Below, in pieces: positions 25,630 through 54,589 of a stretch of 56,193 nt of DNA. The notes under the pieces are model-generated. The model saw only the letters and a list, made by a program, of their open reading frames with translations. It made no database searches and was not told where the DNA came from. Origin of the DNA: a virus (Duplodnaviria; Caudoviricetes). A program made the translations under genes and the position numbers. The stretch is from IMG/VR virus record IMGVR_UViG_3300033513_000007, positions 1 through 56,193 of that record. One strand, 5' to 3'. The stretch's first letter is position 1. Each line of letters begins with the position of its first letter.

Positions 25630-26981
25630 GCCAACATGCCAAACTCATGGCTCCGTCCGCTGCCGAGAAGTGGTCGAATTGTGCCGGCGCCCCCGCGATG
25701 GAAGAGGGCATCCCCGACGAGAGCAGCATCGAAGCCGACGAGGGTTCGGCTGCTCACTTCTTGGGGGCAATCTGCCTGAACAAGAACCAAGACCCGGTGG
25801 CTTTCATTCGCAAGGAAATTCTTGTCGGGCATCATGAGGCATCGGACTCGGACTTCGCGGTCTTCGCCGAAGAAGTCACGGACCTGCAACGCGCGGAGCT
25901 ATCCGTTCGCCATACATTCATAGTCGATGAAGGCATGGTGTCCGCCGTGCGCAAGTACGTGCAGCGCACGCAGAAGGCGGCGGAAGGCGGCGAGTTGATG
26001 ATCGAGCGCAAGCTGGACATCAGCATGATTACCGGCGAGGAAGGGGCTAGTGGTACGGGCGATGCGGTCATCATTCTCCCCGGAGAGTTGCAAGTCCGCG
26101 ACCTCAAGTATGGTGTTGGCATCCGCGTGTTCGCGCCCAACAACAAGCAACTCCTGATCTACGTGCTGGCTGCGTACCACGAGTTCAGTCCGTTCGCGGA
26201 CTTCGAGCGCGTCCGCATCGTCATCCACCAGCCGCGCATCAGCGCCGAACCTGACGAGTGGGTCATCACCGTCGATGAACTTCTTGAGTTCGAGAAGGAA
26301 ATCATGGGCCGCGCGGCGGATGTTCGGATCGCCTACGAGTTCCGGGCCAACTGGGTGGATACCCCGAATCTTCAGTACCTCTCCCCCGGCGCGGAACAAT
26401 GCCGCTGGTGCAGGGCCAAGGACAACGGCAAGTGCCCCGCGTTCGACAAGGCGGCGATGGAAGCAGTCGTCGGTGCCTTTGAGAATCTGGACGCAGACGC
26501 CACGCCCGAGACGGCGATCAAGGAAGCTACCGCCGTCGTAGCGGTGTCGGAAGATGCTGCCGTACTATCAGCCAAGTTCCTGTCCGTGCCGCTGGTGAAG
26601 ATGTGGTGCGATACCGTAGAGAAGCGGGCGTCTGCGGTGGCTCTGTCAGGCATCAAGCTGCCGGGGTTGAAGGTTGTGCAAGGCCGCGAGGGCAACCGCG
26701 CATGGGGCGACCCTGCCGCAGTCGAAGCCGAACTCAAGGCGAAGCGGCTGAAGCAGGACGATATGTACGACAAGAAGTTGATCGGCCCCGCTACCGCCGA
26801 GAAGCGCTTCGGTGAAGGCGGCACGATGTCGAACCCGAAACTCTGGACGAAACTTCAGACGCTCATCACGCGCGCTGCCGGCGCAAAGTCCTTGGTCCCC
26901 GAGTCAGACCGCCGCCCCGAAGTTGATACGAACGTCGCCGCTCAATTCGAGAACTTGGACGACGGTAGCGAACTGGCATAA
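25626..26981 (+). CDS. DUF2800 PD-(D/E)XK (Cas4-like) exonuclease
   Basis: HA.L.PS...W..C, EG..AH, GT.D, DLKYG.G, QPR, C..C motifs. Confidence 0.88.
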   Translation: MSQHAKLMAPSAAEKWSNCAGAPAMEEGIPDESSIEADEGSAAHFLGAICLNKNQDPVAFIRKEILVGHHEASDSDFAVFAEEVTDLQRAELSVRHTFIVDEGMVSAVRKYVQRTQKAAEGGELMIERKLDISMITGEEGASGTGDAVIILPGELQVRDLKYGVGIRVFAPNNKQLLIYVLAAYHEFSPFADFERVRIVIHQPRISAEPDEWVITVDELLEFEKEIMGRAADVRIAYEFRANWVDTPNLQYLSPGAEQCRWCRAKDNGKCPAFDKAAMEAVVGAFENLDADATPETAIKEATAVVAVSEDAAVLSAKFLSVPLVKMWCDTVEKRASAVALSGIKLPGLKVVQGREGNRAWGDPAAVEAELKAKRLKQDDMYDKKLIGPATAEKRFGEGGTMSNPKLWTKLQTLITRAAGAKSLVPESDRRPEVDTNVAAQFENLDDGSELA

Positions 26982-26991: not shown

Positions 26992-27138
26992 ATGTTACAC
27001 AAATCTGACAATCTCATCGAACGGACGGCACGGCGCTACGGCGGAAGGTCCATCACCGAACATGTTCGGCGGGAGACGTGGTGGTTGTTCTGGATCATCC
27101 CTCTGTATTCGCGCGACACGAATCTCTCCATCAACTAA
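26992..27138 (+). CDS. Small hypothetical protein
   Basis: AAGGA RBS; WWLFWIIPLY. Confidence 0.5.
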   Translation: MLHKSDNLIERTARRYGGRSITEHVRRETWWLFWIIPLYSRDTNLSIN

Positions 27139-27150
27139 GAGAAAAACACC

Positions 27151-27285
27151 ATGCTCCCCGTTGCAACACTTCTTCCGCCTCGTGCGCGTGCGATCCTCAT
27201 CGCTGCGGCTACCACGCACAAGATCGCGGAAATCAATGCCGCGATCTACGCGGTGAAAAAGCTGTACCCTCAATTCTTCCGGTAA
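27151..27285 (+). CDS. Small hypothetical protein
   Basis: 44 aa ending YPQFFR. Confidence 0.45.
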   Translation: MLPVATLLPPRARAILIAAATTHKIAEINAAIYAVKKLYPQFFR

Positions 27286-27296
27286 AGGAACCAACC

Positions 27297-27887
27297 ATGA
27301 CGCAAAAAGTAACCCTCCGCAATGTTCGCCAATCCTTTATGGACTACTTCGTCGCCAAGGAATTCAAGACCGGCGACGGTAAGCCGCGCTTCAATAGCAC
27401 GGTCATTGTCGAACCCGGCAGCGACAACGACAAGGCCATCAGGGCGGCGATCAGCGCCGAAATGAAGGAAGTCTTCGGTGACAAGGCCAAGTCGTACTAC
27501 GACTCGTTCAAGGGCAACAGCCAGAAGTGCGCCTACTATGACGGCACGCCGATTGCCGATATGAAGGGCGACTCCTACGAGGACTATCGCGGCAAGATGA
27601 TTCTTGCGGCACATACCAAGGTGCGCCCCACCGTCATCGACCGCGACAAGACCCCGCTCACTGTCGCCGATGGCAAGCCGTATTCCGGCTGCTATGTCAA
27701 TCTCATCGTGGAAATCTACGGGCAGAAGGGCGAGAACCCCGGCCTACGCGCTTCGTTCAGCGGCGCCCAATTCGTGAAGGACGGCAAGGCGTTCGGCGGT
27801 GGCCGTGCTGCGGACCCGAACGAGTTCGAGGACTTGGGCATGGACGAAGGCGGCGGTAGCACCGATAGCGACTTCGACATCGGCTGA
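27297..27887 (+). CDS. ssb: Single-stranded DNA-binding protein (DUF2815 / gp2.5-like)
   Basis: LRNVR.SF, PYSGCYVN, QFVKDG..FGGG motifs; acidic tail. Confidence 0.85.
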   Translation: MTQKVTLRNVRQSFMDYFVAKEFKTGDGKPRFNSTVIVEPGSDNDKAIRAAISAEMKEVFGDKAKSYYDSFKGNSQKCAYYDGTPIADMKGDSYEDYRGKMILAAHTKVRPTVIDRDKTPLTVADGKPYSGCYVNLIVEIYGQKGENPGLRASFSGAQFVKDGKAFGGGRAADPNEFEDLGMDEGGGSTDSDFDIG

Positions 27888-32373: not shown

Positions 32374-32737
32374 CATTGCGTCTCACATCGAGGCAGCACT
32401 GCTCCTAATTCGTCCCAAGAGCGCGACCCCAACACAGATCGCCAAGTACGTCGGGTGTTCGAGGAAGACAGCCTGCCGGTTACTATACAACGCCCGGAAT
32501 GTAGGTATCTGCCACATCACGGGCTGGTGCCCCGAATTCCAAGGCATGCGCAATAGCTGGGTTCCTTTGTACGCACACGGGGCTGGCGCCGATGCAACGA
32601 AGCCGGCACCCCTATCCGCTTGGGAGAAGGTGCAGCAACGCAAGGCCCGCCGCCAGCGTGGCAAGCCGATAGTGCCCGAGGGCGTGCGAATCCTCAACAA
32701 CGTCATCCTGCTCTGGTCCCGCATCCGTGTGTCGTAA
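32366..32737 (+). CDS. Winged-HTH DNA-binding protein
   Basis: TPTQIAKYVGCSRKTA helix-turn-helix; Y..G.G.DA.KP. Confidence 0.65.
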   Translation: MTSIASHIEAALLLIRPKSATPTQIAKYVGCSRKTACRLLYNARNVGICHITGWCPEFQGMRNSWVPLYAHGAGADATKPAPLSAWEKVQQRKARRQRGKPIVPEGVRILNNVILLWSRIRVS

Positions 32738-34181
32738 AGAATTCACCCCCCGGCTGTGGCAACCCGCGATGGCCGAACACCTACTCAACTATGACCGGTG
32801 CGCGCTATGGGCCGGCATGGGCACGGGTAAAACGACCGTGGCTGAGAATTTCCTTGACGCCCTGTACCTTGGAGGGGAGAGCCACCCTACGCTCGTCCTT
32901 GGCCCGCTACGGGTCGCCCGCAACGTGTGGAGCAACGAGACGCTGAAGTGGGAACACCTTCGTAGCCTATCGGTCATTCCCATCGTAGGCAGCGAGAAAC
33001 AACGCCTCGAAGCGCTGCGCCATGATGCACCGGTCTTCACCACGAACTACGACAACCTGATCTGGCTGATCGAACATTACGGGGATCGCTGGCCCTTCCG
33101 CAACATCGTTGCCGACGAGGCCCGCCGCCTCGCCAGCCATCGCATTTCCGAACGGGTATCCACCATTGGCAAGATGTTCCTAGCCGGCCAAGGCGCCAAG
33201 CGCGCAGGAGCGCTCGCGCGTATCTCTTGGACCCACGTGAAGCGGTTCATCGAACTGACGGGCACGCCGGCCCCCAATGGCCTTGGCGATCTGTGGGGGC
33301 AACTCTGGTATCTGGACAAGGGTAGGCGGCTGGGCCGCACACACACCGACTTCCTGAAACGCTGGTTCTGCAAGGGCTACGACGGGTATAGCGTTGGGCC
33401 AAAAAGCGAGTACGTCAGCTCCGAAATACATGAATCTGTCAAAGATATATGCCTGACCATCGACATCCGCGACTACATCGATCTGGACGAGCCGATCATC
33501 AACGACATTTTCGTCGATCTGTCGCCGCAGGCCCGCAAGCTGTACCGCGAAATGGAAAAGGAAATGTTCATCCAGATCGAGGACCGCAACGTAGAGGCGT
33601 TCGGTGCAGCGGCAAAGACGCAGAAATGTTTGCAAATAGCGAATGGCGCCGTCTATGTCGATCCGCTGGCCGACAGCGATCAACACCCTCGGGCGAAGGA
33701 ATGGCGGCTCATCCATGACGAGAAGATCGAAGCGATGGAGTCGCTTGTCAGCGAACTGAGCGGCGCCCCACTGATCGTGTCCTACGAGTTTAAGTCCGAT
33801 CTGGCGCGGCTGGTGAAGGCGTTCCCCAAGGGCCGCGTGCTGAAGACGCACCGCGATGAGGAAGACTTCAAGATGGGCAAGCTACCCCTCCTGTTCATGC
33901 ACCCGCAGAGTGGCGGCTACGGCCTCGATGGCTTCCAGAAGGTATGCAACAACATCTGTTTTTTCGGGCACAATTGGTCGCTGGAAAACTATCAGCAGAT
34001 CATCGAACGCATCGGCCCGACACGTCAATACCAAGAGAACCCGGAAAACCCCCTGCCCGTGTTCATCCACCGCATTATCGCGCGGCAGACAGTGGATGAA
34101 CTTGTCATTGAACGGCAGGAGACGAAGCGCGAGACGCAGGACATTCTGCTGGACGCCTGCAAGCGCTGGAAGAAAAGCTAG
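32727..34181 (+). CDS. SNF2-like helicase
   Basis: MGTGKT, IVADEA, LTGTP, HPQSGGYGLD, Q...RI. Confidence 0.9.
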   Translation: MCRKEFTPRLWQPAMAEHLLNYDRCALWAGMGTGKTTVAENFLDALYLGGESHPTLVLGPLRVARNVWSNETLKWEHLRSLSVIPIVGSEKQRLEALRHDAPVFTTNYDNLIWLIEHYGDRWPFRNIVADEARRLASHRISERVSTIGKMFLAGQGAKRAGALARISWTHVKRFIELTGTPAPNGLGDLWGQLWYLDKGRRLGRTHTDFLKRWFCKGYDGYSVGPKSEYVSSEIHESVKDICLTIDIRDYIDLDEPIINDIFVDLSPQARKLYREMEKEMFIQIEDRNVEAFGAAAKTQKCLQIANGAVYVDPLADSDQHPRAKEWRLIHDEKIEAMESLVSELSGAPLIVSYEFKSDLARLVKAFPKGRVLKTHRDEEDFKMGKLPLLFMHPQSGGYGLDGFQKVCNNICFFGHNWSLENYQQIIERIGPTRQYQENPENPLPVFIHRIIARQTVDELVIERQETKRETQDILLDACKRWKKS

Positions 34182-37305: not shown

Positions 37306-39345
37306 TTATGACACTCCGACGCAGACCCACTTCGACGTATCTGAGCGATATACCAGCGCGATATTGAGGCGCGCGGTCGTCACAGTCGTGGTTGGCAGAT
37401 CGATGGTGGAAGATTCGTAGGCAGTACCCCACGTCAGCGCACGCGCGGCTGTGCCGGTAACGGCGATCAGCAAACCTTGCTCATCGACGGGTGTGCCCGT
37501 GGGGTTGTTGAACAACAAGGCCCCTGCCTGTGCAGTCACCACGAACGCATCGCAGTTGTCGATGTTGAGACTGGTGCCGGTGTCCGTTGTGTAGCTCGTC
37601 GCGGAAATGACACGAGGATTGACGCGCTTGTTGGTAAGCGTCTCGGTGCCCGTCAAGCTAGCGAGGGTAACAGTACCGGGGGGATAGGTGTAGGTGTATG
37701 CCCCTTGGAAAGTAAATTGGCTGGCATAGTTGCCGCTGATCGTGATGGTACTCGCAGCGTTATTCGCTATCCCCGTCCCGCCTTTCGCGGCGGATAGCGT
37801 AGCGCTCAAGTCCGCCGCTGTACCCGTCGTGTTCTGGTTCAGCGTCGGGAAGTCGCCAGCCACGGCAATCGTCAGGGCGCCAGTCGTCGTGGTGGATTTC
37901 AGAATGCCGGTGGCAAGCGCCGAAGTGCCGCCAGAATACTCCGTTCCCTCGGTGGCAATCGAGAGCGCGCCGGTCGTCGTGGTGGATTTCAGAATGCCGG
38001 TGGCAAGCGCCGAAGTGCCACCGGAATAGTCGGTTCCCTCGGTCGCAACCGACAGCACACCGGACGTGAGCTTGGGGATACCAGTCGATGTCGAACGCTT
38101 GACGAGCTTACCGCTCGTGTTCTTGAACAGGACGAGTTCGTTATCGATGCTGCTCGCCGTGTCGCTGGACACGTCGCCTGATCCAGCAGGTGCGGTGGAA
38201 CCAAGAACAATCCGATACCAGACCTTCGGGGTCGTGGAGTCATCCGCGACCAAGTGGATCGTATCACCGACAGAATCGAGGGTACAGGTAGTGGTACCGT
38301 TATCGAAGGTGTCGGTGCCAGTAGTATTGACCGTAAGGGTATTCGACCCTGCCTTTTTCTTTATGCCAGCGGTGTAAGGAAAAGTCGTGATGGTGGAAAT
38401 CTGCAACATATTGATGACGACCGCCGCTGTCGTCGTATCCACAGAGTACAGGGCACCGGCATCGGCAACGAGAGGGGTGTAAGGGGTGTCCGTATTATCA
38501 AGGCCATAGATGACCCGCCACAGGGCACTGTCGAGCGCTTGGCTCGCATAATCCGCAGCCTCGCCTGCGGAGGTAGCGGCGGCGGTTTCACTGGCGGCGG
38601 CGGCAGTGGCGGACGCCTCGGCGGCAGCGGCTTGAGCGGCGGCGTCGATGGTACCAGCTTCCGCAGCCTCGGCGGCGAGTTGGCTGGCGAGAGCGGCGGC
38701 GGCGGATGCAGCCGAATTGGTTTCGCTCAACCCTGCGGCTACCTCACTGGCCGCAGCGGCGATTTCGCTCAACCCGGCAGCCGTTTCGCTGGCGCCGGAA
38801 TTCGTCTCACTGACGCCTGCTGCATTCTCGCTGGCTAAAGCTGCGGCGGCGCTTACGCCGGCCGCACTTGCAGCACTCGAAGCCGTGGATTGAGACGAAG
38901 CAGCAGAGGCAGCAGCGGCCTCCGCATCTACCTTGTTAGCATACGTCGATATACCAGCTTCGACGGCCGCTTCGATGGAGGTCGCCTGTACCGTGGTAAT
39001 CGAGGTCGTATCGACGACGACTGGATTCGCGGTGGCCGTGACGGAGAACCACGTATCGTGCAGCGTCGTGCCGTACTGGACGAAAATCTGCGTGCCGTAG
39101 GTAATCTCGTAGCCATTGTTGAAGTCGGTGGCACGGACCCACGCCCCGCGCATGACGTTGTAGATACCGTTCTCTGCGGTAGCCGTCTGCAACCGGACGA
39201 AGCAGCGGTCGCCTTCAACCAGCGCGATTCCGTCGATTGTCTGCTCGCCGTATAGCGTGATGTTCGCTGTGGTGGCCGCACGGCATGGCGCCTTCAACGG
39301 AAGCCCGCCAGTTTGTCCTCTGATTCGATCTACATTGATTGCCAT
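37306..39345 (-). CDS. Tail fibre protein
   Basis: K..CRAATTANITL.G.QTIDG...GDR....QT...ENGIY....W.RA.D N-terminus; AAASE coiled stalk; internal repeats. Confidence 0.85.
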   Translation of the reverse strand: MAINVDRIRGQTGGLPLKAPCRAATTANITLYGEQTIDGIALVEGDRCFVRLQTATAENGIYNVMRGAWVRATDFNNGYEITYGTQIFVQYGTTLHDTWFSVTATANPVVVDTTSITTVQATSIEAAVEAGISTYANKVDAEAAAASAASSQSTASSAASAAGVSAAAALASENAAGVSETNSGASETAAGLSEIAAAASEVAAGLSETNSAASAAAALASQLAAEAAEAGTIDAAAQAAAAEASATAAAASETAAATSAGEAADYASQALDSALWRVIYGLDNTDTPYTPLVADAGALYSVDTTTAAVVINMLQISTITTFPYTAGIKKKAGSNTLTVNTTGTDTFDNGTTTCTLDSVGDTIHLVADDSTTPKVWYRIVLGSTAPAGSGDVSSDTASSIDNELVLFKNTSGKLVKRSTSTGIPKLTSGVLSVATEGTDYSGGTSALATGILKSTTTTGALSIATEGTEYSGGTSALATGILKSTTTTGALTIAVAGDFPTLNQNTTGTAADLSATLSAAKGGTGIANNAASTITISGNYASQFTFQGAYTYTYPPGTVTLASLTGTETLTNKRVNPRVISATSYTTDTGTSLNIDNCDAFVVTAQAGALLFNNPTGTPVDEQGLLIAVTGTAARALTWGTAYESSTIDLPTTTVTTARLNIALVYRSDTSKWVCVGVS
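37866..38046 (-). repeat. 90-bp tandem duplication in the tail fibre gene
   Basis: ATEGT(D/E)YSGGTSALATGILKSTTTTGAL x2, near-identical DNA. Confidence 0.9.
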
Positions 39346-39405: not shown

Positions 39406-42400
39406 TTAGTGCTTAGATTCAGGGCTTGCGAAGCCTGTTGCTACGCCCCGCGCCACATCTATCGGTCCTGTGGGTTCTACCCTTCCGCCTGAGATATCGG
39501 CGGCGTAGCTGATAGGTCTTGCCAGCGCACTGGCGGGCACGCCAGTTGTCATGCTGATGAGAGTCGCCACATCCTTGACGGCGCGGCTAGGTTTGCCTTC
39601 GCCAGCTACGGCGTTATAAACCGACTGCGGCGCACGCAATGAACTCTCGACCATGCTGATTGCGGGCGAGGTCGAGATACGGTCGTCATAAGGCTGGTTG
39701 TTCAGCATGTTCAAGCCGGCGTTCGCCACGGGGCCGAAACCCGGCACCATCGCCACGCCGTACCGCAGCGGCGCAAGCACGAATAGATCGCGCAGCCAGT
39801 CGTCCAGATACTCGCCGTCGCCGTCGTCATCCGGGGGGCCACCGTGCATCAGTTGAATCGCCAGTTCCCCGAACACAGCCGGCAAGAAATAGCCGATCAT
39901 GAACACGTACAGGCCACGGCCTACCCCCTTGCGGACCCCCATGTCGCGCGTGATCTGCACGTACTCGTTGCCCAGCAGATTGGCGATCATGTTGAAGTAG
40001 CCGGCGAACTGCACGAACATGCGGTAGAACGGCGTGCCCGATTCAAACGAGGCTATGTCTTCCGGCGCCCATGATCCTTGCGTCTCGCGCACCGTCGAGT
40101 CAGCAAAGCGAACGGCTTCTTCCTCGCTCAGTTTGCCCTCGATGGATTGGTTGTATGCAGCGAGCCACACCGGGCCGCTCATGATGTTGTCGGCTGCGGT
40201 TTGCAGAAAGTAGCTGTGCTTCACCAGCCAATTCTTCGTGTTCTGGTAGGTGGAGGGGTTCAGCAGGATGTCGTTTATATCTTCGGTCATCGACATCGCT
40301 TCGTTGGTCATGCGATTGTTCATATACACCGACTTGTCGGTGACATACTTGGTGAAGTCGCGCGGAGACATCGCGTACTTGGCAAAGGCATCCACCAGCA
40401 TCGCGGGGCGCACCTTCACCATCGCGGTGAATGGCGAGGTCATGATCTGTTGCAGCGCGTTCGCCACGTTGCCGAACATCGCGGACATGCCGGCGTTCTT
40501 GCGCACCGCCGTCCAGAAGCGGCCCAGCCCTTCCTTGCCCGGTGTCTGCGTCTCTACGATCTGATGCGCCGCACGGTTGAGCCACGGCACAATCATCGTG
40601 TTGAACGCCTGCGGGTCTTGCCGATGTAGCGCTTGCGATACCGTCTTGCCTCGCATCAGACGCCTCACGTCATTGACTGGCTGGGCCATGTGCGTGAATA
40701 GCAGCGCCTTGTCAATGTGCTGCGACAGCGAACGCAGATCGAGTTTCAACGGGCGCGTGTAAGATTCCACGCGACCTTTCGTGAAACCACGAGCCGGTGC
40801 CGGGAACGCATACGACATATTGTTCTGTTCCTCTTCGGCCAGTGCCCGCAGATCGGCATCGCGCACGATCAGCGGATCAGTGATCGCCGGAACGTAGCCC
40901 CCAGCGTAAGTGCCGAAAGGCGTCGTGAATTCCTTGGCCGTGACCTCTGCAAAATACTTGCCGAAGACTTCGTGGTGTGCCTTCTGCGCTGCGGGCTTCA
41001 TGGCTTCCATGAGATTCCACACACCCTGTACGAAGTCGTAGTCGGCCTTCGTCAAAATCTTGCGATCCTGCATGCGGGTGATGAACGAGTCCCACTTTGT
41101 CGTATCGAGGGTACCGTCTGCGTTCTCGGTGGCCCAATGCCGGCCCAGCAGCAACTTCCGCAGGTTGCTCTCGTTGCCGGTATGCAGCAGGGCGTGCAGG
41201 AGTTCGGCCTTGCCCATGCCGCCGTCGCCCGCACCGAAGGTATATCCCAGTTCCTTGGCGTCGATCAATTGGCGTGTGAGCGTCGGTTCGACGGTCTTCA
41301 GCAATTCCTTGTACGCGCGCAGATAGCGCGCCTTGTCGAAGCGATACTTCGTCGCGGCCTCGCTGATGGGCGACCACATGAACTTGCGGAACGGGCCGGT
41401 GCTGCCGCCATCCTTCGCGTCCGTCCAATTCTCCATGCGCGTAAGCGTACCCACGAAGCGGTCGAACTTCATCTTCCGCCTCTCCGTTTCGGTCACGGCT
41501 TGGCTCTCGCCGGGTATGCTGGTCGGGATTCCGAGTTGTTCGATGCGCGCGTAGAGTTCGTTTTGCGCATCTTGCAGCGACATCAACTTGCCGCCAATCT
41601 CGATCTGGTGTGCGCGCTTGGCGAGGAACCATATCCCTTCGATTTCTTCCGCGAGGGTACGAGCATCCGCGACGGAAAGGTTCTGCCAGTTCTTCGCGCT
41701 GTTGGACAAACCAATGATGACATCGGTAAGTGATGCGGCCAACTCGGGGTCCATGCGCTTGACGACTTCCAAATACTCTTGGGCGCGCTTGCCCTTCGTG
41801 CCGATGTCGAACTCAGCCAAGATCGCACGAGTGGTGGCAACCAACTCGGCATCACGACTCTTGATCGCGGAAGAGTCTTCCTTGTACGACGCGATGGCGT
41901 GCAGGCGGTCGAAGATGCGGTGCAGTTCCTTCTCCGTCTTGTAGGCTTCCTTGGTCGAGACTTGGTTGATGAGCGCCGTCCGCTTCTGTGCAGCGGCCTC
42001 GTCGCGTTCGCCCTTACGCAGCGCCGCCTGCGCGGCCTTGTTCGCCCGCACTTCCGCTGCCGCGTACTGCATGGGCTTCAGGGTCTTGATCGTCTTGTGG
42101 GCAATGCGCTGACGTGCGAATTCCTTCGCGGCCTTGAGCAGCACACTCGGGGCGCCAATCTTGTTGTTGAGCGCTGCGAGTTCCGTCGCCAGCAGGCGCG
42201 AGTGCGCGTCGTTGTGGATCGCTTCGTCCGCCGCCTTGGCGATGACCTCGGGCGAATTCAGATCGCCGTATTGGTCGAGCATGCGCAGATCGGTCTGCGT
42301 CTCGATTTCCTCGCTCAGTTTCGGCGCGGATATGAGTTGCGCGATCATGTCCTCGCCGGATCGGAAGCCCAGCATCGACGCCACCATGTCGGGATGCAGC

Positions 42401-45400
42401 CCTTCTTTCGCCAGCAAGCCAGTGTTGCCGTACCCCAGCGTCTTCCAAACGGAGGCGGCTTCATCCGGGTACATCGCTTGCACGTCGGAGATTTGCAGCT
42501 TGTGGTTTTCCTGCTTCACCACGTTGCCTTCGACATCGACCAACTCGCCTGAACGCAGGAAGCGCGATGCCTTATAGACGGGCGAGGCCGCGAGTTCCTT
42601 GGTGACTTCGGCCTTGATTTCTGCACGCTTGGCGCGGGCGTCCGCCTGAAGTTCCTTGATCGTCTTGTCGTAGCTGTTGCGCATCCACTTCATGTCGCGC
42701 AGGCTGCGGGTCCGCAGCATGGCTTCGGCATCGTCGCGTTGCTCGCGCGTGAGTTCGGTGTATTCGACAAACTTCGCCTCGTCCATCCCGGCCTCAACTG
42801 CGTTCTGGAACAGGGCTGTGTAGTTGCGCGTTTCCGCCGCCGTTGCGATTGCCTCATCGGTAGCCAACATGCGGTCCATGACGGCCGCGACCTCTGGCGT
42901 CAAAGTGGCGCCAGTGTGTGAGGCGACGAAATCCTTGAGCGAGCCATAGACCCGCTTCAAGAATGAAGCGAATCGACGGTACAGCGGTTCCAGTTCTGTG
43001 CTGGGCGCCTTGTTGCTGAATAGATATTGCTCGAAGCTCTCCGCGAATTTCTCATGATAGGGCTTTTTCTCGTTGAGGGGGAGAGCGTTCCACGCCGCCA
43101 TATCGGGCACGCCGAACCACTTCAGCAGCGCGTTCATGTCATCCACGATGACCTTCGGCGCCGTCTCGCTGGCGGCGATGTCGCCATAGACCATCAGGAA
43201 AAAGTGTCCCGTCTCGTGCATGAACGAGGATAGATTTGCGTTTGCCAGCAGGCGCAAGTCCAGCGTCTCGGGGTTGAAGCTGGCGATGTTCTCGGCTGTG
43301 GGCGTGAAGGGCACCGGCAGGTTGTCCGTTTGTCCAAATTCACTGCTATCGATCCCGACATCCAACTGCGCGCGCGGAGCGTCGAAGTTGAGGTCGATGG
43401 TGAAGTGCGTGCCATCGGGCAGCGTAGAGTAGAAGTCAGAGGGTTCGGTGGCATGCACCGTCACTCCGGTTGCGGGCGTCACAGAGCCGTCTTGATAGAC
43501 CAGCCCCTGACGAGTCAGGACAGATTCTTGATTGAATTCTTTACCGAGCGCGAGCGCCTGTTCGGGCGTTACCCCAAGGGTGACGTAAGGGTTCTCGATG
43601 TTGCCGTACTTGCCTTTGATCTGGAAATGCTCAAGACCGAGTTGATCGAGGCGGGCGGAAAGATCGGAGTTCGCCTTCGCGTTTTCCTCCTGCGTTCCCT
43701 GCACGCCCATCGGGTTCTCTGCCGTCAGGATGCTCCACTGCGAGGCGCCCAGCACGTCCTTGATGCCTGTGCGCGTGAAGGTAGCTTTGGTCGCCACCGG
43801 GATGCCTTGGTGCAGGACCGCGCCACTCTTCTGATTGAAGGCGGCGGGGAGACGATGTTCGTCGGCCAGCTTGTTGAACGCGGCGACGATTTCTTTGTTG
43901 TAATTTCCACTCGCAAGAATGGCCCGCGCCTTTGCCAAACTGGCGTCATGAATGTATCTGTGCCCCGCGTCCTGCGAACCCACCGATGCGGCCACATCCG
44001 CGACGTGAAGCACTTGCGCACTGAAACTGAGATAGGCATCCGTCGTCGGGTACCCGCCACCAAGTTCCCGATGGTGATCGCGCACAATCTCCGCGATCTT
44101 CTGTGGGATACCCGCTTGCAATAATGCCGATGCCCCGGCCTCGGGGTGAGTCTGAACCTGTACGCGCTCCTCGGGAGTAAGCGCGCGATCCGCAGTCAGC
44201 AAACCTTCTGGCAAAGTGCCCTTGCCGATATCGTGCACCAGCGCGGCCAGTGCGATTTCGACACGGTTCTGCGACGGTACGCCGAGTTCCTTTGCCAGTT
44301 CGTTCGCCAATGCCGCCGTCGTATGCTCGTGGATGACAGTGCCCGCATCCGTGGCACCTTGCTCGATGCCCAGCACTTTGTTCGCAAGCTGGCGGTAATA
44401 GAGGATGTTCGCCTTGTTCAGCGGCACGCCCTGCGGGCCTTGTACGTTCAGGTGATACCCCCGATGCTGCTGGCCGGTGGCATCCGTCCAACCGTTCATG
44501 AGGCCCAAGGGGGTAGTGCCAAGTCGTTCAGAGGCAACAGCGAAGAAACTACTAATGAGCTTGGCGTAACTCTGGTTTGCCTGTGGTCCTGCCTTACCCA
44601 CCCGCTGAAGTTGGTCGTAAATGTCCGTCTGTACCGCCTTGGTTTCGGCAATGAACTTCTCGTTGCTCGCCTGTTCTTCCAACACACGGCCTGCTTCCTC
44701 TTGGAAGAACGCGCTTGCCTTGTCGCCGGCCGCTTTCGTTTCGGCCAGCGTGGGAGAATCCGGCGCGATCCGCAGATTCTCCACGATGGTCTGTTCGACG
44801 CCAGTGCCCCCCAGCCCTTGCAGCAATTCGCCCACCGGTACCTCGATGCCGATACCCGGCATAGGGCCGCGCTCCAACTGAGCCGCCGCCGTGGGCAATA
44901 CTTCCTTGATGTCAAGCCCTGCTTTTCCCAAAGCCGTCTTCAGGATTTCAGGGTCGATGGTGACGGTCTGATCGGGGGCGACGGATTGGAAGAATTCCTT
45001 CAGCGTTTCCGGCGCGTGTTTCAGGCTCTCCGTCGCTGTCTCGAACAACGAGGTTAGGGTGTCGGCGTTGGTCTGTGCCTGCGCGCTTTCCGTCGAGGCT
45101 TGCCCCGCGAGTTTCTGCGCGCCGTGAATGACCCCGGCCTGCAACGAACCCCCGACGAGGGTGGCTACGAAGGTTTGCCGCATCGCGCTGGGTTGTTCCA
45201 TCAAGAAATCTTTGAAGGGCTTCTCGGGGTTCAGTTGCGCCCATGTGTTGAAGTTCTGCGACAGCGTGGTCAGTTCTTCGCCTACAAGTTCTTTCTTAAG
45301 GAAATTCCACAAGAATGCTTTGAGTGGGCCGTTGTTGGCTATCTTGCCGGCGATGGCGCCGGCCGGTCCAACCTCGAAGGCGTACTCGAAAGCCGCTTGC

Positions 45401-46188
45401 GGGATAGCATACCCCAAAGCCTGCGGGGCGGTCTTGCCCTTGTCCTTCGCCTCGAAGTAGGACTGCGCCCCCTGTTGCAAACCAAACAACCCGGCTATCG
45501 CTTGTGTGGCAAATGCAACACTCTTCGTGAGCGCGAGTTCCGCCCCAAGGGGGAGCATGGCGGTAGCCAACCCCGCAGATCGGGCGCCGGCATACACGCC
45601 CGCCTCAAGGTCGCTAGTAGGCGTCGGGGCGATGTCCGTCATGGCCTGTCGCGCCCGCGCCGCATATCCGCGCGAGGCGTTTGCCGTGCGCTGAAGCGTT
45701 TTGAATATCCGATTTTCAGGCAACCCCGGAACCGATTGAGACAGCCACGCCGCGACATCGAACGGCAGCGCCGCCGCTTCAAACTCGAATGCGCCCATTT
45801 CCGCCGTGAAGCCAAGGGCATAGTTCGCTATCGTGCCCCCAAGAGCTTTCAGCCCTTTCTCCATCGCGGAGAGATTCGGCACATCGTTGCGAGCGATCCC
45901 GGCCTTCACCGGGTCGAGCAGAAAGTCGGCGGTCTTCGGGGATGTCGTGACCAACCCGGTGAAGTCGGTGCCCTGCAACGCCCGGTGCCGCGCCGCCTCT
46001 TCAGGATCGGCATGCAGCGATTGAATCGGGATCATCGTCGCCTGTGACAGTGCGATGTCCTTGGCAAACTGTTCTGGTGCTGTGCTAGCGGTATTAGCGA
46101 AATTGTTGCGCAGCGTTGCCGCCTTGAACTCTTGCTCTTGCTTCAGGAAGTCATCGATGCTTGACTGAAGATCGTTGTTGTCGGGCAT
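39406..46188 (-). CDS. Large internal virion (ejection) protein, polyvalent: HD-GYP-like domain, SAM-lyase-like domain, HExxH region
   Basis: 2,260 aa at the T7 gp16-equivalent position; HDIGK...HP..G...HH.....GYP...VAD; WSILTAENP...GKY...E...FNQESVL; FMHETGH. Confidence 0.85.
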   Translation of the reverse strand: MPDNNDLQSSIDDFLKQEQEFKAATLRNNFANTASTAPEQFAKDIALSQATMIPIQSLHADPEEAARHRALQGTDFTGLVTTSPKTADFLLDPVKAGIARNDVPNLSAMEKGLKALGGTIANYALGFTAEMGAFEFEAAALPFDVAAWLSQSVPGLPENRIFKTLQRTANASRGYAARARQAMTDIAPTPTSDLEAGVYAGARSAGLATAMLPLGAELALTKSVAFATQAIAGLFGLQQGAQSYFEAKDKGKTAPQALGYAIPQAAFEYAFEVGPAGAIAGKIANNGPLKAFLWNFLKKELVGEELTTLSQNFNTWAQLNPEKPFKDFLMEQPSAMRQTFVATLVGGSLQAGVIHGAQKLAGQASTESAQAQTNADTLTSLFETATESLKHAPETLKEFFQSVAPDQTVTIDPEILKTALGKAGLDIKEVLPTAAAQLERGPMPGIGIEVPVGELLQGLGGTGVEQTIVENLRIAPDSPTLAETKAAGDKASAFFQEEAGRVLEEQASNEKFIAETKAVQTDIYDQLQRVGKAGPQANQSYAKLISSFFAVASERLGTTPLGLMNGWTDATGQQHRGYHLNVQGPQGVPLNKANILYYRQLANKVLGIEQGATDAGTVIHEHTTAALANELAKELGVPSQNRVEIALAALVHDIGKGTLPEGLLTADRALTPEERVQVQTHPEAGASALLQAGIPQKIAEIVRDHHRELGGGYPTTDAYLSFSAQVLHVADVAASVGSQDAGHRYIHDASLAKARAILASGNYNKEIVAAFNKLADEHRLPAAFNQKSGAVLHQGIPVATKATFTRTGIKDVLGASQWSILTAENPMGVQGTQEENAKANSDLSARLDQLGLEHFQIKGKYGNIENPYVTLGVTPEQALALGKEFNQESVLTRQGLVYQDGSVTPATGVTVHATEPSDFYSTLPDGTHFTIDLNFDAPRAQLDVGIDSSEFGQTDNLPVPFTPTAENIASFNPETLDLRLLANANLSSFMHETGHFFLMVYGDIAASETAPKVIVDDMNALLKWFGVPDMAAWNALPLNEKKPYHEKFAESFEQYLFSNKAPSTELEPLYRRFASFLKRVYGSLKDFVASHTGATLTPEVAAVMDRMLATDEAIATAAETRNYTALFQNAVEAGMDEAKFVEYTELTREQRDDAEAMLRTRSLRDMKWMRNSYDKTIKELQADARAKRAEIKAEVTKELAASPVYKASRFLRSGELVDVEGNVVKQENHKLQISDVQAMYPDEAASVWKTLGYGNTGLLAKEGLHPDMVASMLGFRSGEDMIAQLISAPKLSEEIETQTDLRMLDQYGDLNSPEVIAKAADEAIHNDAHSRLLATELAALNNKIGAPSVLLKAAKEFARQRIAHKTIKTLKPMQYAAAEVRANKAAQAALRKGERDEAAAQKRTALINQVSTKEAYKTEKELHRIFDRLHAIASYKEDSSAIKSRDAELVATTRAILAEFDIGTKGKRAQEYLEVVKRMDPELAASLTDVIIGLSNSAKNWQNLSVADARTLAEEIEGIWFLAKRAHQIEIGGKLMSLQDAQNELYARIEQLGIPTSIPGESQAVTETERRKMKFDRFVGTLTRMENWTDAKDGGSTGPFRKFMWSPISEAATKYRFDKARYLRAYKELLKTVEPTLTRQLIDAKELGYTFGAGDGGMGKAELLHALLHTGNESNLRKLLLGRHWATENADGTLDTTKWDSFITRMQDRKILTKADYDFVQGVWNLMEAMKPAAQKAHHEVFGKYFAEVTAKEFTTPFGTYAGGYVPAITDPLIVRDADLRALAEEEQNNMSYAFPAPARGFTKGRVESYTRPLKLDLRSLSQHIDKALLFTHMAQPVNDVRRLMRGKTVSQALHRQDPQAFNTMIVPWLNRAAHQIVETQTPGKEGLGRFWTAVRKNAGMSAMFGNVANALQQIMTSPFTAMVKVRPAMLVDAFAKYAMSPRDFTKYVTDKSVYMNNRMTNEAMSMTEDINDILLNPSTYQNTKNWLVKHSYFLQTAADNIMSGPVWLAAYNQSIEGKLSEEEAVRFADSTVRETQGSWAPEDIASFESGTPFYRMFVQFAGYFNMIANLLGNEYVQITRDMGVRKGVGRGLYVFMIGYFLPAVFGELAIQLMHGGPPDDDGDGEYLDDWLRDLFVLAPLRYGVAMVPGFGPVANAGLNMLNNQPYDDRISTSPAISMVESSLRAPQSVYNAVAGEGKPSRAVKDVATLISMTTGVPASALARPISYAADISGGRVEPTGPIDVARGVATGFASPESKH

Positions 46189-48533
46189 TATTTCATTCCC
46201 ATTTGGAGTTGCTTGTAGAGCGTGAGGACTTGCACGTCAGTCGGATCGGTTACGCCGCCCGCCTTGAGTTTCGCCTTGAGCGAATCCCTGTCTGCCGAGG
46301 GAACGTCGGAGTATTGCATCGACATTATATTCAGTGCATGCTTGCCGCTTCCCGGTGCCCATGACGGCAGGGTAATACCGAAGAAGGTATTCTGCAAGAT
46401 GGTGTTGTGGGAGAACGTATCATTCACCAACTTGATGACCTCGACATCCGTGAGCTTGCGGCCAATCTGCTTCTGCCGTTCAAGAACGGCTTGATCGAGA
46501 ATCGCCCGCGCCGAATTGACCCGCATTCTTCCCTTCGGGTCTTTATCCCCCGGATTCGAGTCAATGTTTAGCATATTCAGACGAGCATCCAGCGCCGCCT
46601 TCACGGACCCAGCATCCATGCCTTCGGATTCCTTGACGTTGCCGCCCAGCAGTGACGACCGTTGCTTGTCGAAACGGTCCCAGTCATATGCCGACAGTTG
46701 CGTCTTCATCGGGCCAACCCATGCCGCATTGGGCACACGAGCTAAATAGTTCGGGTCGGAATTGATTTGCATCAGCAGCCCTTGATTGCTGTCGCGCGGG
46801 GCACCGCTGATATGTTCGTCGAATACCTTGCGCATCTTGTCCTGCTCGACCACCGGCAGCTTCGAGAGTTCGGAGACGGGCAACTCTTGGTAGGATTTGC
46901 CTTGGGCCATGTAGCCGTACAGTGTTTCCTGTGTCTTCTCGACTTCGCTCTTGCGCGCGTCCTTCATCAAGTCGATGGAATGCTCCACCTGTTTGGCGGC
47001 TTCGGCAGCAAGGTCAGGACGACCAGCAAAACGCACGGCCATTGACGATTCAATTTCTTGCTTCGACGGAGCGACCATATCGGGTTGCGCTTTGACCGCC
47101 GCCAAGACTCTCGACACATAGGGCTTCGTCTCTCGGGGCTTCGGCAGGAAGTCAAGGAAAGAAAGCGGGCCATCCCTCTCGGGGCTGTAACCCCCCGGCA
47201 ACACGGGCTTGCCCCCGGCTGCAAGCACTTCCATTGCCTTGGCATACTTCTTCTTAGCCTCGATGACGTTGCCTTCGCCCGCGTTGTACGCCGCCGCAAT
47301 TTCGGGCGCCGAAGAGAACATCTTCATGAGGCGGGCCAGATGCGCCTGTTGAAGTGCGTCGTGGTATTGCTGGCCTTCAGGAGTGGCGCTGAAGAACAGT
47401 TTCTCGTCCCACGGAATACCGGCCTCGGCAGCATCCTGCTTCGCGGAGTCGGGCATGAGTTGATGGGTGCCCACAGCACGTTGCCCCTTGTTCGGTCCCG
47501 ACGTAATGAAGGGACCGCGAATATTCACGCCGGCACCGGACTTGTCCTTCGCCCGCGCGGCACCGACTTCGCCCACATCGAGTGCGCCACCGAGGATCAC
47601 GCTGGACAACTTGCCCACCACGGTCTGCTTCGGATAGACCGAATCGGTGAGGTACGATGCCGCGCCGTTCTGCGCCGCCTGCGCGTCTTCACGCTTCGCC
47701 AGTTGCTCCGCGATGATGAGTTTCTTGTCAGGGTCGATAGTAAGCTGGTTCTCGTTGAAGATTTCCTTCGCGCGGCGAAGATCGCGGTTGTCGAGAGCGG
47801 AAGCGATCGATCCAACCAGCATAGGCGACATTGCCTTGCGGCGAAGCGCCATGATCGCGTTCTGCCCTTCGGGCGTGTCGCTCGTGAGGCCCGCTTCCTG
47901 CGCCTGCTGCATGACTTGCTGGTCAATCAGCATTTGCTGTTCGGTCATCTTGCCGGGATCGTTCCAGAAGGACGTGCCGAGAGACGTGAGCGTATCGATG
48001 TTGCCTTGGCGCACGATGCCCTTGAACTTCTCCGTCTCCCCCATCGAATGCCGCAGGATGTCCGATTGAAGCCCGAAGATTTCATGATCTGCGTGGGGCT
48101 TCAGCATCGCCTGTTGGGCCGGCGACAGATTCGCCATGATGCCCGTCACCTTCGTATTGAGTTGGTCTTTGTACCCGCTCATGTACGTCGGACTCAGGAC
48201 ATTGCCGCCCGTGATCTTGTACGCGCCAGTATCCCCCATCGTCAGGTCGAGACGTGCTTGCCTGATCTGGTTCAAGGCATCTTGCGCCTTGAGTGTATCC
48301 AGCTTGTCCTGCTCCTGCTTGCGCAAGGCTTCCATCTTGGCCGTGCGCTGCTCGATGGTATCGAAGAACATTTTCCCAGCTTGCTGTAGCGCTTCGCCGG
48401 TATAGACATCGGGCCGAACTTCGGTAGGAGTTTGCCGCGTGGTGTGCTGCATGGCGACCGGCACATCCACAACCCCGCGAGACGCGCGGGGGATGCTGAC
48501 ACCATAGTCTTCGGGGGCGGGTAAGCGAGCCAT
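46188..48533 (-). CDS. Internal virion (ejection) protein with lytic-transglycosylase-like domain
   Basis: AVG..QLMP, AAAYNAGEGNV, ETKPYV SLT motifs. Confidence 0.8.
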   Translation of the reverse strand: MARLPAPEDYGVSIPRASRGVVDVPVAMQHTTRQTPTEVRPDVYTGEALQQAGKMFFDTIEQRTAKMEALRKQEQDKLDTLKAQDALNQIRQARLDLTMGDTGAYKITGGNVLSPTYMSGYKDQLNTKVTGIMANLSPAQQAMLKPHADHEIFGLQSDILRHSMGETEKFKGIVRQGNIDTLTSLGTSFWNDPGKMTEQQMLIDQQVMQQAQEAGLTSDTPEGQNAIMALRRKAMSPMLVGSIASALDNRDLRRAKEIFNENQLTIDPDKKLIIAEQLAKREDAQAAQNGAASYLTDSVYPKQTVVGKLSSVILGGALDVGEVGAARAKDKSGAGVNIRGPFITSGPNKGQRAVGTHQLMPDSAKQDAAEAGIPWDEKLFFSATPEGQQYHDALQQAHLARLMKMFSSAPEIAAAYNAGEGNVIEAKKKYAKAMEVLAAGGKPVLPGGYSPERDGPLSFLDFLPKPRETKPYVSRVLAAVKAQPDMVAPSKQEIESSMAVRFAGRPDLAAEAAKQVEHSIDLMKDARKSEVEKTQETLYGYMAQGKSYQELPVSELSKLPVVEQDKMRKVFDEHISGAPRDSNQGLLMQINSDPNYLARVPNAAWVGPMKTQLSAYDWDRFDKQRSSLLGGNVKESEGMDAGSVKAALDARLNMLNIDSNPGDKDPKGRMRVNSARAILDQAVLERQKQIGRKLTDVEVIKLVNDTFSHNTILQNTFFGITLPSWAPGSGKHALNIMSMQYSDVPSADRDSLKAKLKAGGVTDPTDVQVLTLYKQLQMGMK

Positions 48534-53758: not shown

Positions 53759-54589
53759 TTACTGCGCGGCGTAGGCCGAGCCGTCGTGGTTGATGATGAC
53801 GATCCCGGCGTTTTGCAGGAGCTTGGAACCGAGGTACGCCGTGGTGCGGGCGTAGCTGTAGTCCTGTTCCTCGTCATAGCCGACAGCCGTGGCGAGCTTC
53901 TCGGTATTGACGCAGTGGCCGATGGCGTTCTTGTGGTACATGATGCACTTCTCGGCAGCGGTGCCCTTGCCCGAAAGGTTCGGATGGACGATCCAATTGA
54001 CGCCGGCCCAGCGGAACATCGTCAGGTTGGACGAGAACGGCTTGTTGCTGACGTAATCGACGCTGGCGAATTCCTTGGTCTGCATCAGGTAGGCGTATGC
54101 AGCCGGCGTGATGAGGCAAGAAATGTTGCCGTCGATGGGCACGGCGTTGTTGCCGAGGATCGTGACCGCGTACATGGCGAGGTCAAGGCTGAACTTGTCG
54201 GCGACGCCGGTATCCTGCGTGCCATCTTCGAGCGCGTCGATGATGTCGGAGTCGATCTTGCGGTTGATGACGGCCATGCTGTTCATCTGCATGATGCGGC
54301 GACCGTCGCCTTGCGAGGCATAGATGTTGAAGCTGGTCCGACGACGCAGATCATGCCATTCCACGAGGGTCGCGGACGACTGCGTGAGGTTGTCGGCCTT
54401 GGCCGGGATCATACCGTTGGTGCCGCGCGTGACGGCTTCGGCGCCATCCGAGTCTGCGACGAGGAATACAGCGGTGTTGCCCTGAATATCCGTATCGGTC
54501 GTGACGGTGCCACGAACGAGGGACTGACGTTGCTCGAAACCGGCGATGAATTCTTCGCGGTACCGTGTTTGGAAGGCAGTGTCGCCCAT
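53759..54589 (-). CDS. Major capsid protein (BPP-1-like)
   Basis: AF...Y..EF...FEQRQS.VR.TV; INRKID.DII; KEFAS.DYV; W.G..WIVHP.L. Confidence 0.85.
   Translation of the reverse strand: MGDTAFQTRYREEFIAGFEQRQSLVRGTVTTDTDIQGNTAVFLVADSDGAEAVTRGTNGMIPAKADNLTQSSATLVEWHDLRRRTSFNIYASQGDGRRIMQMNSMAVINRKIDSDIIDALEDGTQDTGVADKFSLDLAMYAVTILGNNAVPIDGNISCLITPAAYAYLMQTKEFASVDYVSNKPFSSNLTMFRWAGVNWIVHPNLSGKGTAAEKCIMYHKNAIGHCVNTEKLATAVGYDEEQDYSYARTTAYLGSKLLQNAGIVIINHDGSAYAAQ

Follow-up and report, generated by a model that had tools for sequence, protein, structure and literature searches.

Internal virion proteins (IVPs) of podoviruses host lysozyme domains and also domains that are bound for the cytoplasm, among them the RNA polymerase of phage N4 (PMC4819975, in part; here and below, sources given as "in part" are cited from the portion available). 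Packaging and injection are likewise predicted for polyvalent proteins, and phosphoesterase domains of these proteins have been put forward as possible counters to host nucleotide signaling (PMC5512222, in part). Phage HD-GYP domains have been predicted to serve in counter-defense (PMC7824862). In addition, a preprint reports only two phage matches with a GYP loop in its structure database, one of which, a free-standing phage HD-GYP, degrades 3'3'-cyclic GMP-AMP (bioRxiv 10.64898/2026.07.21.739742, in part). As far as these sources go, enzyme-carrying ejection proteins, polyvalent injected proteins directed at nucleotide signaling and phage HD-GYP counter-defense are thus already in print. Here an HD-GYP-lineage domain was analyzed within a 2,260-amino-acid (aa) protein encoded by IMG/VR record IMGVR_UViG_3300033513_000007, a 56,193-bp viral record that is complete and bounded by direct terminal repeats (the window, meaning the whole stretch of DNA that was analyzed). 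The reading favored here, held with slightly more assurance than doubt, is that a polyvalent protein, injected at infection, brings in an active and divergent phosphodiesterase of the HD-GYP type against a cyclic nucleotide messenger, probably a defense signal, together with a module directed at S-adenosylmethionine (SAM).

The identity of the domain was assessed by profile matches, sequence matches to solved structures and predicted fold. Matches above cut-off were obtained to Pfam HD_5 (E 9.7e-17, 61.7 bits, cut-off 27.2), Pfam HD (E 2.2e-12, 47.7 bits, cut-off 22) and the NCBIfam model HDIG TIGR00277 (E 9.3e-10, 38.3 bits, cut-off 27.6), and an exhaustive HMMER search with the domain returned 47,084 representatives at E<=1e-3. 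Eight PDB sequences were matched by phmmer at E<=1. The five best were V-cGAP3 (5z7c, E 8.5e-6), PmGH (4mcw), Bd1817 (3tm8), DvhD (9rbz) and PA4781 (4r8z), followed by PgpH and TmpB; the DvhD entries are named "HD domain/sensory box protein" in the sequence listing and HD-GYP in the Foldseek listing. An AlphaFold model of the segment, built from a 24-sequence alignment, reached a predicted local distance difference test score (pLDDT) of 85.6 and a predicted template-modeling score (pTM) of 0.84. Its helices at positions 132-147, 161-170 and 175-186 of the 210-aa segment correspond to the extra C-terminal helices found beyond the five-helix HD core. The top Foldseek match was DvhD with cyclic di-GMP (c-di-GMP) bound (E 4.4e-6, template-modeling score (TM) 0.71/0.73 over 203 columns), followed by PA4781, PmGH and Bd1817, with the c-di-AMP enzyme PgpH at rank 9. 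Among the first 15 matches listed, 13 were HD-GYP structures (TM 0.63-0.73) and two were PgpH, and identity to the solved structures in the Foldseek alignments was 17-23%. Taken together, sequence and predicted fold confirm, beyond chance, that this is an HD domain of the HD-GYP lineage. The original prediction had placed an HD-GYP-like segment at 43860-44345, which is right to within a codon (aa 615-775 lie at window 43864-44346), and the checks returned HD matches by profile and HD-GYP structures as the best Foldseek neighbors of the AlphaFold model. The strings it quoted are all present, namely IHEH (with H620), HDIGK, THPEAG (H681), DHHRELGGGYP and HVADV (D731).

These comparisons also bear on the notion that the domain is an HD hydrolase for a non-cyclic substrate, such as pGpG or linear dinucleotides, (p)ppGpp alarmones, 2',3'-cyclic ends, deoxynucleoside triphosphates or nucleic acid, with a role in nucleotide scavenging, stringent-response control or DNA or RNA processing at entry. 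The HD superfamily covers many chemistries (PMC8177086, in part), the HD-GYP substrate-reading motifs are lost, as described below, and the RelA_SpoT and PBECR RNase cargos of related proteins indicate that the family makes use of alarmone or RNA targets. However, the nearest enzymes by both sequence and fold are HD-GYPs and then PgpH, all of which act on cyclic dinucleotides. Cas3 HD, SpoT-like, YpgQ, DatZ and exopolyphosphatase structures fall far lower (Foldseek E 0.09-0.15, TM 0.26-0.45), SpoT-like viral fold matches reach only E ~0.7, and the extra C-terminal helices and tyrosine loop specific to HD-GYPs are retained. A non-cyclic substrate is therefore regarded as improbable. A nuclease or Cas3-like assignment was considered as well and was rejected on the low Foldseek rank of the Cas3 HD domain.

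Residues of the active site were compared with those of PmGH, in which the metal ligands are E185, H189, H221, D222, H250, H276, H277 and D305 (PMC4159591, in part). In that enzyme, alanine changes of the ligands other than E185 and D305, and of D183 and K225, essentially abolished activity, and D305A markedly reduced it. D308 was also needed, D308A having an impact like that of a ligand mutation, whereas alanine changes of GYP (including Y285A), R314 and K317 caused no substantial drop in activity. All seven core ligands are kept in the window protein (H620, H652, D653, H681, H705, H706 and D731, the last equivalent to D305). Also kept are D614 (PmGH D183), K656 (PmGH K225) and Y713, with HDIGK at 652-656, DHHRELGGGYP at 704-714 and the GYP loop at 712-714. 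The earlier statement that all metal ligands are present thus holds for the seven core ligands and fails for a partly conserved eighth, since PmGH E185 corresponds to Gly616, four residues before H620. This E185-type ligand for a third metal is only partly conserved and splits HD-GYPs into tri- and binuclear subfamilies (bioRxiv 10.1101/2021.11.05.467447, in part), so that Gly616 predicts a binuclear type and is not disqualifying.

The remaining motifs depart further from the cellular pattern. The signature loop HHExh(D/N)GxGYP, of 11 residues, is represented by HHRELGGGYP, of 10 residues, lacking the E after HH and the D/N. KPG is replaced by ADR at 666-668, RxY[K/R] aligns with DAGH, and PmGH D308 and R192, which form a pair, correspond to Ala734 and Thr623. 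The shortening of the loop had been noticed in the original prediction and was confirmed; the loss of KPG, RxY[K/R] and the D308/R192 pair had been missed. In canonical enzymes, KPG holds the second base, RxY[K/R] reads guanine and the GYP tyrosine bonds the ring phosphate, and RxY[K/R] and KPG together are largely responsible for c-di-GMP specificity (bioRxiv 10.1101/2021.11.05.467447, in part). To judge from its motifs, then, this is no canonical c-di-GMP enzyme: its metal site seems intact, the surface that reads the substrate has been rebuilt and one stabilizing pair is gone.

The same departures are shared by a small group of relatives. The 153 top proteins of the HMMER search yielded 205 HD domains, which were aligned to a common profile; 200 of them lie outside a five-member phage clade made up of the window protein (P0001), its counterpart in a sister phage (P0002), P0005, P0008 and P0009. 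In a FastTree phylogeny (LG+gamma), for which 200 domains with at least 120 match columns were taken and five of the 205 dropped, these five sequences formed an exclusive clade with support 0.977 and a stem length of 0.53. Among the 200 non-clade, cellular domains, HD was found in 187, HHE in 169, [DN]GxGYP in 168, the 11-residue HH..P spacing in 183, RxY[KR] in 138, the looser Rxx[KRQNHS] in 165 and K-x-G in 73, KPG itself being only moderately conserved in this set. In the clade, HHE, [DN]GxGYP and RxY[KR] were each found in none of the five, and K-x-G only in P0008. What the clade does conserve is the H, HD, H, HH and D ligands and the tyrosine, which are invariant in every member sequence covering them, the equivalent of Y713 being kept in all five. 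In place of RxY[K/R] it has an invariant motif of its own, D-x-x-H-x-Y (D740, H743 and Y745 in the window protein). The GYP loop is degenerate within the clade, reading QYP in P0008 and GGY-G in P0009. Replacement of KPG and RxY[K/R] by DxxHxY leads us to expect a substrate preference other than that of the canonical c-di-GMP enzymes.

It is nevertheless conceivable that the domain is a c-di-GMP phosphodiesterase for host takeover, which would lower c-di-GMP at entry and so change motility, pili, exopolysaccharide or superinfection. Its nearest folds are c-di-GMP enzymes (DvhD with ligand bound, PA4781 and PmGH), the metal ligands and the phosphate-contacting tyrosine are kept, and the tolerance of PmGH to alanine changes in R314, K317 and GYP means that motif loss need not abolish activity (PMC4159591, in part). 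Against this, KPG is missing from four and RxY[K/R] from all five clade members, compared with 138 of the 200 cellular domains that have the latter, and the clade conserves DxxHxY instead. In addition, the other cargos of this protein family are counter-defense or host-shut-off enzymes and not modulators of signaling, and the adjoining module resembles an anti-restriction enzyme. A takeover function of this kind is considered unlikely.

Selection on the domain was examined by comparison with P0002, the ortholog in the 55,892-bp sister phage, which is 89% identical in the HD region. The ratio of nonsynonymous to synonymous substitution (dN/dS) was 0.055 for the HD segment, the lowest of six segments, compared with 0.095 for the SAM-lyase-like segment, 0.105 for the C-terminal body, 0.133 for LPD22 and 0.274 for aa 118-590; since dS was 0.7-1.8, near saturation, these ratios are rough. 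The ranking argues for a functional HD domain, and it bears on a further explanation in which the domain is catalytically dead and acts as a nucleotide sponge, a protein-interaction module or a purely structural spacer within the capsid core or the ejection channel. Inactive HD-GYPs that still bind ligands or partners are described in the literature, and the missing HHE and D308/R192 pair and the degenerating GYP loop would suit such a role. However, the seven core ligands, K656 and D614 are kept, the ligands and tyrosine are invariant in the clade where covered, and the inactive examples in that literature have lost HD and/or HH. Furthermore, the HD segment is under stronger constraint than the structural body, and relatives without an HD domain assemble the same backbone, which indicates that the domain is not structurally needed. 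A dead domain is thus very unlikely.

The clade members differ in their surroundings. In P0009 (2,701 aa, on a 46,185-bp contig) a window-type backbone carries DUF3293 before the HD domain, and P0005, from a 1.2-kb contig, is a fragment of 161 aa. In the case of P0008 (1,795 aa, on a 44,961-bp contig) the backbone is unlike that of the window protein. Only the HD domain is in common, at 38% identity, and the likeness includes the clade-specific C-terminal helices. The N-terminus of P0008 has an SLT domain and matches PHROG 342, "internal virion protein with endolysin domain". The clade would thus so far be confined to large phage virion-type proteins with two backbones, and its presence in the unrelated backbone of P0008 points to repeated recruitment into virion proteins.

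Searches for further members suggest that the clade is rare, bearing in mind that the scans are pattern-based and insensitive. Scans of IMG/VR with the domain and with the clade alignment found only the sister phage. Scans with the clade alignment gave four loci in metagenomes and two in genomes, all at 29-35% identity, compared with 35-89% among clade members. A tblastn search of 50,697 GenBank phage records with the HD domain matched 20, of which 19 are unannotated "Bacteriophage sp." contigs; a virion-protein context was seen for none of the 20, the 19 unannotated contigs not having been inspected. The sole cultured phage among them is the jumbo Microcystis phage MaAM05, where the match is a free-standing gene (28% identity, E 9e-8). 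BFVD yielded a single fold match at E<=1e-3, namely gp79 (159 aa) of Bacillus phage G.

The nature of the carrier protein was assessed from gene order and homology. On the minus strand, the genes follow the order major capsid, tail tubular A, tail tubular B, two small genes (127 and 239 aa), a 781-aa SLT protein, the 2,260-aa gene and tail fiber, and the tail tubular A- and B-like genes fix the synteny of the module. The 2,260-aa gene, the largest structural gene, thus occupies the position of T7 gp16, behind tail tubular A and B and the small IVPs and before the tail fiber. The order from bbp14 (tail proteins) to bbp9 (tail fiber) in phage BPP-1 is the same, except that BPP-1 has one small open reading frame (ORF), bbp12, where the window has two. 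A match to PHROG 9880 spans aa 973-2254 of the window protein, and BPP-1 Bbp10 aligns with aa 970-2124 (~1,200 aa, 31% identity, E 5e-143) as well as with the N-terminus (E 2e-48). Bbp10 is listed as the BPP-1 homolog of IVP-D (T7 gp16) in Table 2 of PMC4819975 (in part). Because of its N-terminal LPD22 match, the protein was placed among the polyvalent proteins of PMC5512222; by Pfam it combines several effector- or LPD-type modules in one polypeptide (LPD22, HD_5 and DUF3293). Synteny and Bbp10 homology support the view that the carrier is a large ejection-type internal virion protein of a podovirus, as had been predicted, and presence of the protein in the virion is expected on the same two grounds. 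One base, at 46188, belongs both to the stop codon of the 781-aa SLT gene and to the start codon (ATG) of the 2,260-aa one (window 46186-46190, ORF coordinates), and this overlap of two large internal-protein genes suggests translational coupling.

The HD domain lies in a part of the protein whose content varies among relatives. A homolog search with aa 975-1475 gave 1,327 large metagenomic and genomic homologs at E<=1e-3, and slot contents were read from the precomputed Pfam content of the 120 that were listed. LPD22 is present in most of these. Their cargo domains include ART-PolyVal, DUF7178, PBECR5, PBECR1, GNAT, LPD3 and LPD23. Further cargos are PF06414, PF04607 and PF04002, which we take to be zeta toxin, RelA_SpoT and RadC, respectively. 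DUF3293 (PF11697), or S-AdoMet_lyase, is a cargo as well, with PF11697 carried by 18 of the 120, and HD_5 is found in only two, the window protein and P0002. In Bbp10, Pfam assigns positions 41-138 to LPD22 and 643-729 to a PBECR1 RNase, the latter lying immediately ahead of the conserved body, which starts at aa 776. The HD segment is thus a rare cargo in a variable slot filled with host-directed enzymes, and the suggestion that it is a variable insert is borne out by the homolog comparison, with PBECR1 in the Bbp10 slot and other effectors elsewhere. Bbp10 is labeled "crystallin beta/gamma motif-containing protein" in GenBank (NC_005357, 5875-12033), and derived papers call it a lysin, one of them repeating the label "lysin with crystallin motif". 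A Pfam scan found no muralytic domain in Bbp10, and the "lysin" or "lysis protein" labels that have spread to its relatives look unfounded.

A second cargo module directly follows the HD domain. Pfam DUF3293 matches aa 821-890 (E 1e-10, 42.5 bits, cut-off 25), and the S-AdoMet_lyase model PF23780 remains below its cut-off in the window protein (E 0.16, 12.4 bits, cut-off 28). In relative P0155, DUF3293 and S-AdoMet_lyase fall on the same stretch, the latter with 29.8 bits against a cut-off of 28. The module of ~140 aa recurs in 18 other large relatives, and a word-based search found no short relatives of it. A model built from a 15-row alignment had a pLDDT of 84.4, with residues 146-165 disordered. 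Its only Foldseek match in the PDB at E<=1e-3 was the T3 SAM lyase (8bb1_E, E 7.6e-4, TM 0.58/0.64), followed by 7ock and 6zm9, with the SAM-AMP lyase 9gad far lower in the list (E 0.35); identity to the T3 SAM lyase was 14-15% in the Foldseek alignment. ESM Atlas neighbors were mostly viral DUF3293 and S-AdoMet_lyase clusters (scores 0.89-0.92, with a recognition value below the usual bar). A phmmer search of the PDB with aa 801-960 gave a chance match only, and a literature search for "DUF3293" found no paper. The predicted structure supports a SAM-lyase fold for aa 801-945, and DUF3293 seems, on the same model, to be an unrecognized branch of the SAM-lyase family.

Delivery of a divergent HD-GYP-type phosphodiesterase by an injected protein would proceed as follows. 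A few copies of the 2,260-aa protein would be packed in the capsid core and would travel down the tail, accompanying the DNA or preceding it. On the cytoplasmic side, the cargo domains would then refold, either tethered to a channel-forming body or freed by proteolysis. There, the HD domain, by means of a binuclear metal center and the GYP tyrosine, would hydrolyze the 3'-5' phosphodiester of a cyclic di- or oligonucleotide messenger before phage gene expression, and the neighboring module would act on SAM itself or on a molecule derived from it. The comparisons show the identity of the domain, the conservation of its ligands, the architecture of the protein, the variability of the slot and purifying selection; from them we infer packaging, ejection, location in the cytoplasm, activity and substrate. 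Most plausibly, the substrate would be a defense signal of the class used by the cyclic-oligonucleotide-based antiphage signaling system (CBASS) or by type III clustered regularly interspaced short palindromic repeats (CRISPR) systems.

Several points weigh against delivery of such an enzyme. With respect to catalysis, the loss of the D308/R192 pair could mean loss of activity, given that D308A in PmGH is as damaging as a ligand change; the signature loop departs from its pattern, and GYP degenerates even within the clade. With respect to substrate, the original prediction had assigned cyclic nucleotides as in canonical HD-GYPs. The HD-GYP lineage is supported, but with ADR and DAGH in place of the c-di-GMP specificity motifs the canonical substrates are not simply transferable. 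T7 gp16 is present at ~4 copies per virion. CBASS is often triggered late in infection, which makes pre-delivery less obviously useful. The cargo might also finish up in the periplasm, but no periplasmic substrate is known for the HD-GYP fold. The copy number given for IVP-C is ~8 per virion (PMC4819975, in part), and with few copies expected, turnover would be limited. Finally, in the portion of the BPP-1 source available, mass spectrometry names only Bbp16 and Bbp17.

A bolder version of this proposal holds that the clade is a new specificity class that exists only as phage virion cargo, arrives pre-made and erases a defense messenger other than c-di-GMP, as one half of a two-enzyme cassette in which the SAM-lyase-fold module removes SAM or a SAM-AMP-like signal. 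This version is doubtful. If true, it would represent the first virion-delivered eraser of immune signals.

Outside the cargo, the window protein has a conserved N-terminal module, a fast-evolving region and a long C-terminal body (Table 1). In the fast-evolving region, aa 118-590, identity to the sister phage is 51%, compared with 83-89% in the LPD22, HD, SAM-lyase-like and C-terminal segments and 65% in a 23-codon linker. This region holds 11 of the 13 indels between the two proteins, and the A+G fraction is 0.29 for aa 120-370. A tblastn search with the whole protein matched 121 GenBank phage records, mostly over aa ~970-2250, from phages of Bordetella, Caulobacter, Xanthomonas, Vibrio, Pseudomonas, Flavobacterium and other hosts. 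The C-terminal body opens with a HETGH motif, whose H, E, G and H are invariant in the window phage, the sister phage and BPP-1; a block of the form HE[KQ]F...FE.YLF, likewise conserved, follows downstream, and the counterpart of the motif in P0009 is HEMAH. A three-sequence profile of this region gave only chance hemoglobin matches in the PDB, and Pfam gave no match in the window protein and a sub-threshold DUF6782 match in relative P0185. On the motif alone, HETGH may mark a zincin-type, self-processing metallopeptidase site. Zincin-like metallopeptidases are frequent in polyvalent proteins and are proposed to process the protein (PMC5512222, in part). The stretch aa 2093-2111, the sole one in the protein reaching at least 1.3 on the Kyte-Doolittle scale, is a candidate membrane-inserting helix.

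Elsewhere in the genome, a 1,590-aa ORF (13119-17891, minus strand), far from the tail module, has a polysaccharide lyase domain (2.6e-22), a CBM35-like domain and a weak D5_N match, and may encode a depolymerase tailspike or a replication/depolymerase fusion. Replication module ORFs at 18479-20506 (minus strand), 25488-26981, 27078-27887 and 32727-34181 (all plus strand) comprise an archaeo-eukaryotic primase (AEP)-type primase fused to an AAA_25 helicase-like domain, DUF2800, an Enc34-type single-stranded DNA-binding protein and an SNF2 helicase. No phage RNA polymerase was found among the ten large non-structural ORFs scanned, smaller ORFs lying outside the scan, and no tRNA genes were found in the window. 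The BPP-1 link and the names attached to distant homologs (Aromatoleum, Thauera, Azoarcus and Cupriavidus) hint at a host among the Betaproteobacteria.

Table 1. Coordinates of the carrier gene, its segments and the surrounding virion genes in the window.
Feature	Position	Strand	Basis
Carrier gene, 2,260-aa polyvalent internal virion (IVP-D/Bbp10-type) protein, P0001	39406..46188	-	ORF and translation
LPD22, conserved N-terminal module, aa 29-117	45838..46104	-	PF18834, E 6.8e-13, 49.1 bits, cut-off 28.6
Ala/Gly-rich region, fast-evolving, no family match, aa 118-590	44419..45837	-	Comparison with sister phage
Divergent HD-GYP-clade HD phosphohydrolase domain, aa 600-790	43819..44391	-	Pfam, NCBIfam, PDB sequence matches, model, Foldseek
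DUF3293/SAM-lyase-like domain, second cargo module, aa 801-945	43354..43788	-	Pfam, model, Foldseek
Conserved C-terminal body, common to Bbp10-like proteins of many podoviruses, aa 970-2260	39409..43281	-	tblastn and homolog search
HETGH (HExxH) motif, aa 991-995	43204..43218	-	Motif only
Hydrophobic segment, aa 2093-2111	39856..39912	-	Kyte-Doolittle, 19-residue window, mean 1.8
Major capsid protein gene	53759-54589	-	Minus-strand gene order
Tail tubular A-like, 214 aa	52282-52926	-	PHROG 394, 1.6e-37; PHROG 9239 "tail tubular protein"
Tail tubular B-like, 886 aa	49617-52277	-	PHROG 376 "tail protein", 6.5e-146
Internal virion protein with SLT transglycosylase domain, 781 aa, bbp11 equivalent	46188..48533	-	Pfam SLT, 1.4e-5; PHROG 10475 "endolysin", 1.5e-49
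Tail fiber gene, 679 aa, downstream of the 2,260-aa gene	37306..39345	-	PHROG 11518 and 4242 "tail fiber protein"

Compared with cellular HD-GYPs (PmGH 4mcw, DvhD 9rbz, PA4781 4r8z, V-cGAP3 5z7c and Bd1817 3tm8), the window domain shares the core ligands, the HDxGK lysine, the GYP tyrosine and the extra helices, with Foldseek E values of 4e-6 to 2e-4 and TM scores of 0.63-0.73 for the first four families. It differs in that it lacks a sensor or receiver domain and is embedded in a virion protein of 2,260 aa. Retention of the catalytic metal site together with exchange of the base-reading residues makes it a compact, testable lead to a new HD-GYP specificity.

The free-standing phage HD-GYPs (the jumbo phage examples of PMC7824862, Ph-HD-GYP-2, MaAM05 and gp79 of phage G) are also phage-encoded domains of the HD-GYP type. 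However, these are small, separate proteins expressed after entry, mostly in jumbo phages, whereas the window domain is fused, belongs to a 56-kb podovirus and falls in a clade of its own that has neither the canonical loop nor the base-reading motifs. In the case of the SAM-directed module, the T3 SAM lyase family (8bb1, 7ock and 6zm9) provides the best fold match, and the difference lies in the low identity and the sub-threshold S-AdoMet_lyase score given above.

To our knowledge, the phage enzymes known to destroy nucleotide immune signals are all made after entry. Acb1, which has a 2H fold, and Apyc1, a metallo-beta-lactamase, are both made after infection and are not known to be packaged. 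As phage enzymes that destroy cyclic-nucleotide immune signals in anti-CBASS and anti-Pycsar defense evasion, they resemble the role proposed here (PMC9117128, in part). An enzyme that enters together with the genome would be at work before any phage transcript is made, and small-molecule signaling would thereby join the targets of a strategy exemplified by T4 Alt and the N4 polymerase.

The carrier resembles T7 gp16 and the N4 gp50 virion RNA polymerase in genomic position, in being the largest virion gene and, probably, in being an enzyme-carrying ejection protein. The link to them runs through Bbp10 and PMC4819975 (in part) and not through direct sequence comparison. Differences are that the SLT domain of the window phage sits on a separate 781-aa protein, and that the cargo is of phosphodiesterase type and neither polymerase nor muralytic.

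With the polyvalent proteins and Bbp10, the carrier shares the LPD22 N-terminus, several effector-type domains, a location among virion genes and the conserved C-terminal body, the difference being that Bbp10 has a PBECR1 RNase in the slot where the window phage has the HD domain. The terms "HD-GYP", "HD domain", "HD superfamily", "HD phospho" and "HD hydrolase" do not occur in the main text of PMC5512222, and the literature searched, which covered PMC5512222 in its main text only, contained no description of an HD-GYP as part of a virion protein. The novelty is thus smaller than first claimed, given that the three component ideas are in print, while the joining of HD-GYP and virion protein in one polypeptide still stands as a combination not found in that literature. 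If the domain were an ordinary c-di-GMP enzyme, or inactive, it would be one more rare domain combination in a class known for shuffling. The Bbp10-type slot, in a family of over 1,300 relatives, amounts to a catalogue of effectors for the entry stage, and in it the window phage pairs two small-molecule-directed modules. Relative to the described systems, what this locus adds is a rare cargo and a new HD-GYP subclade rather than a new category.

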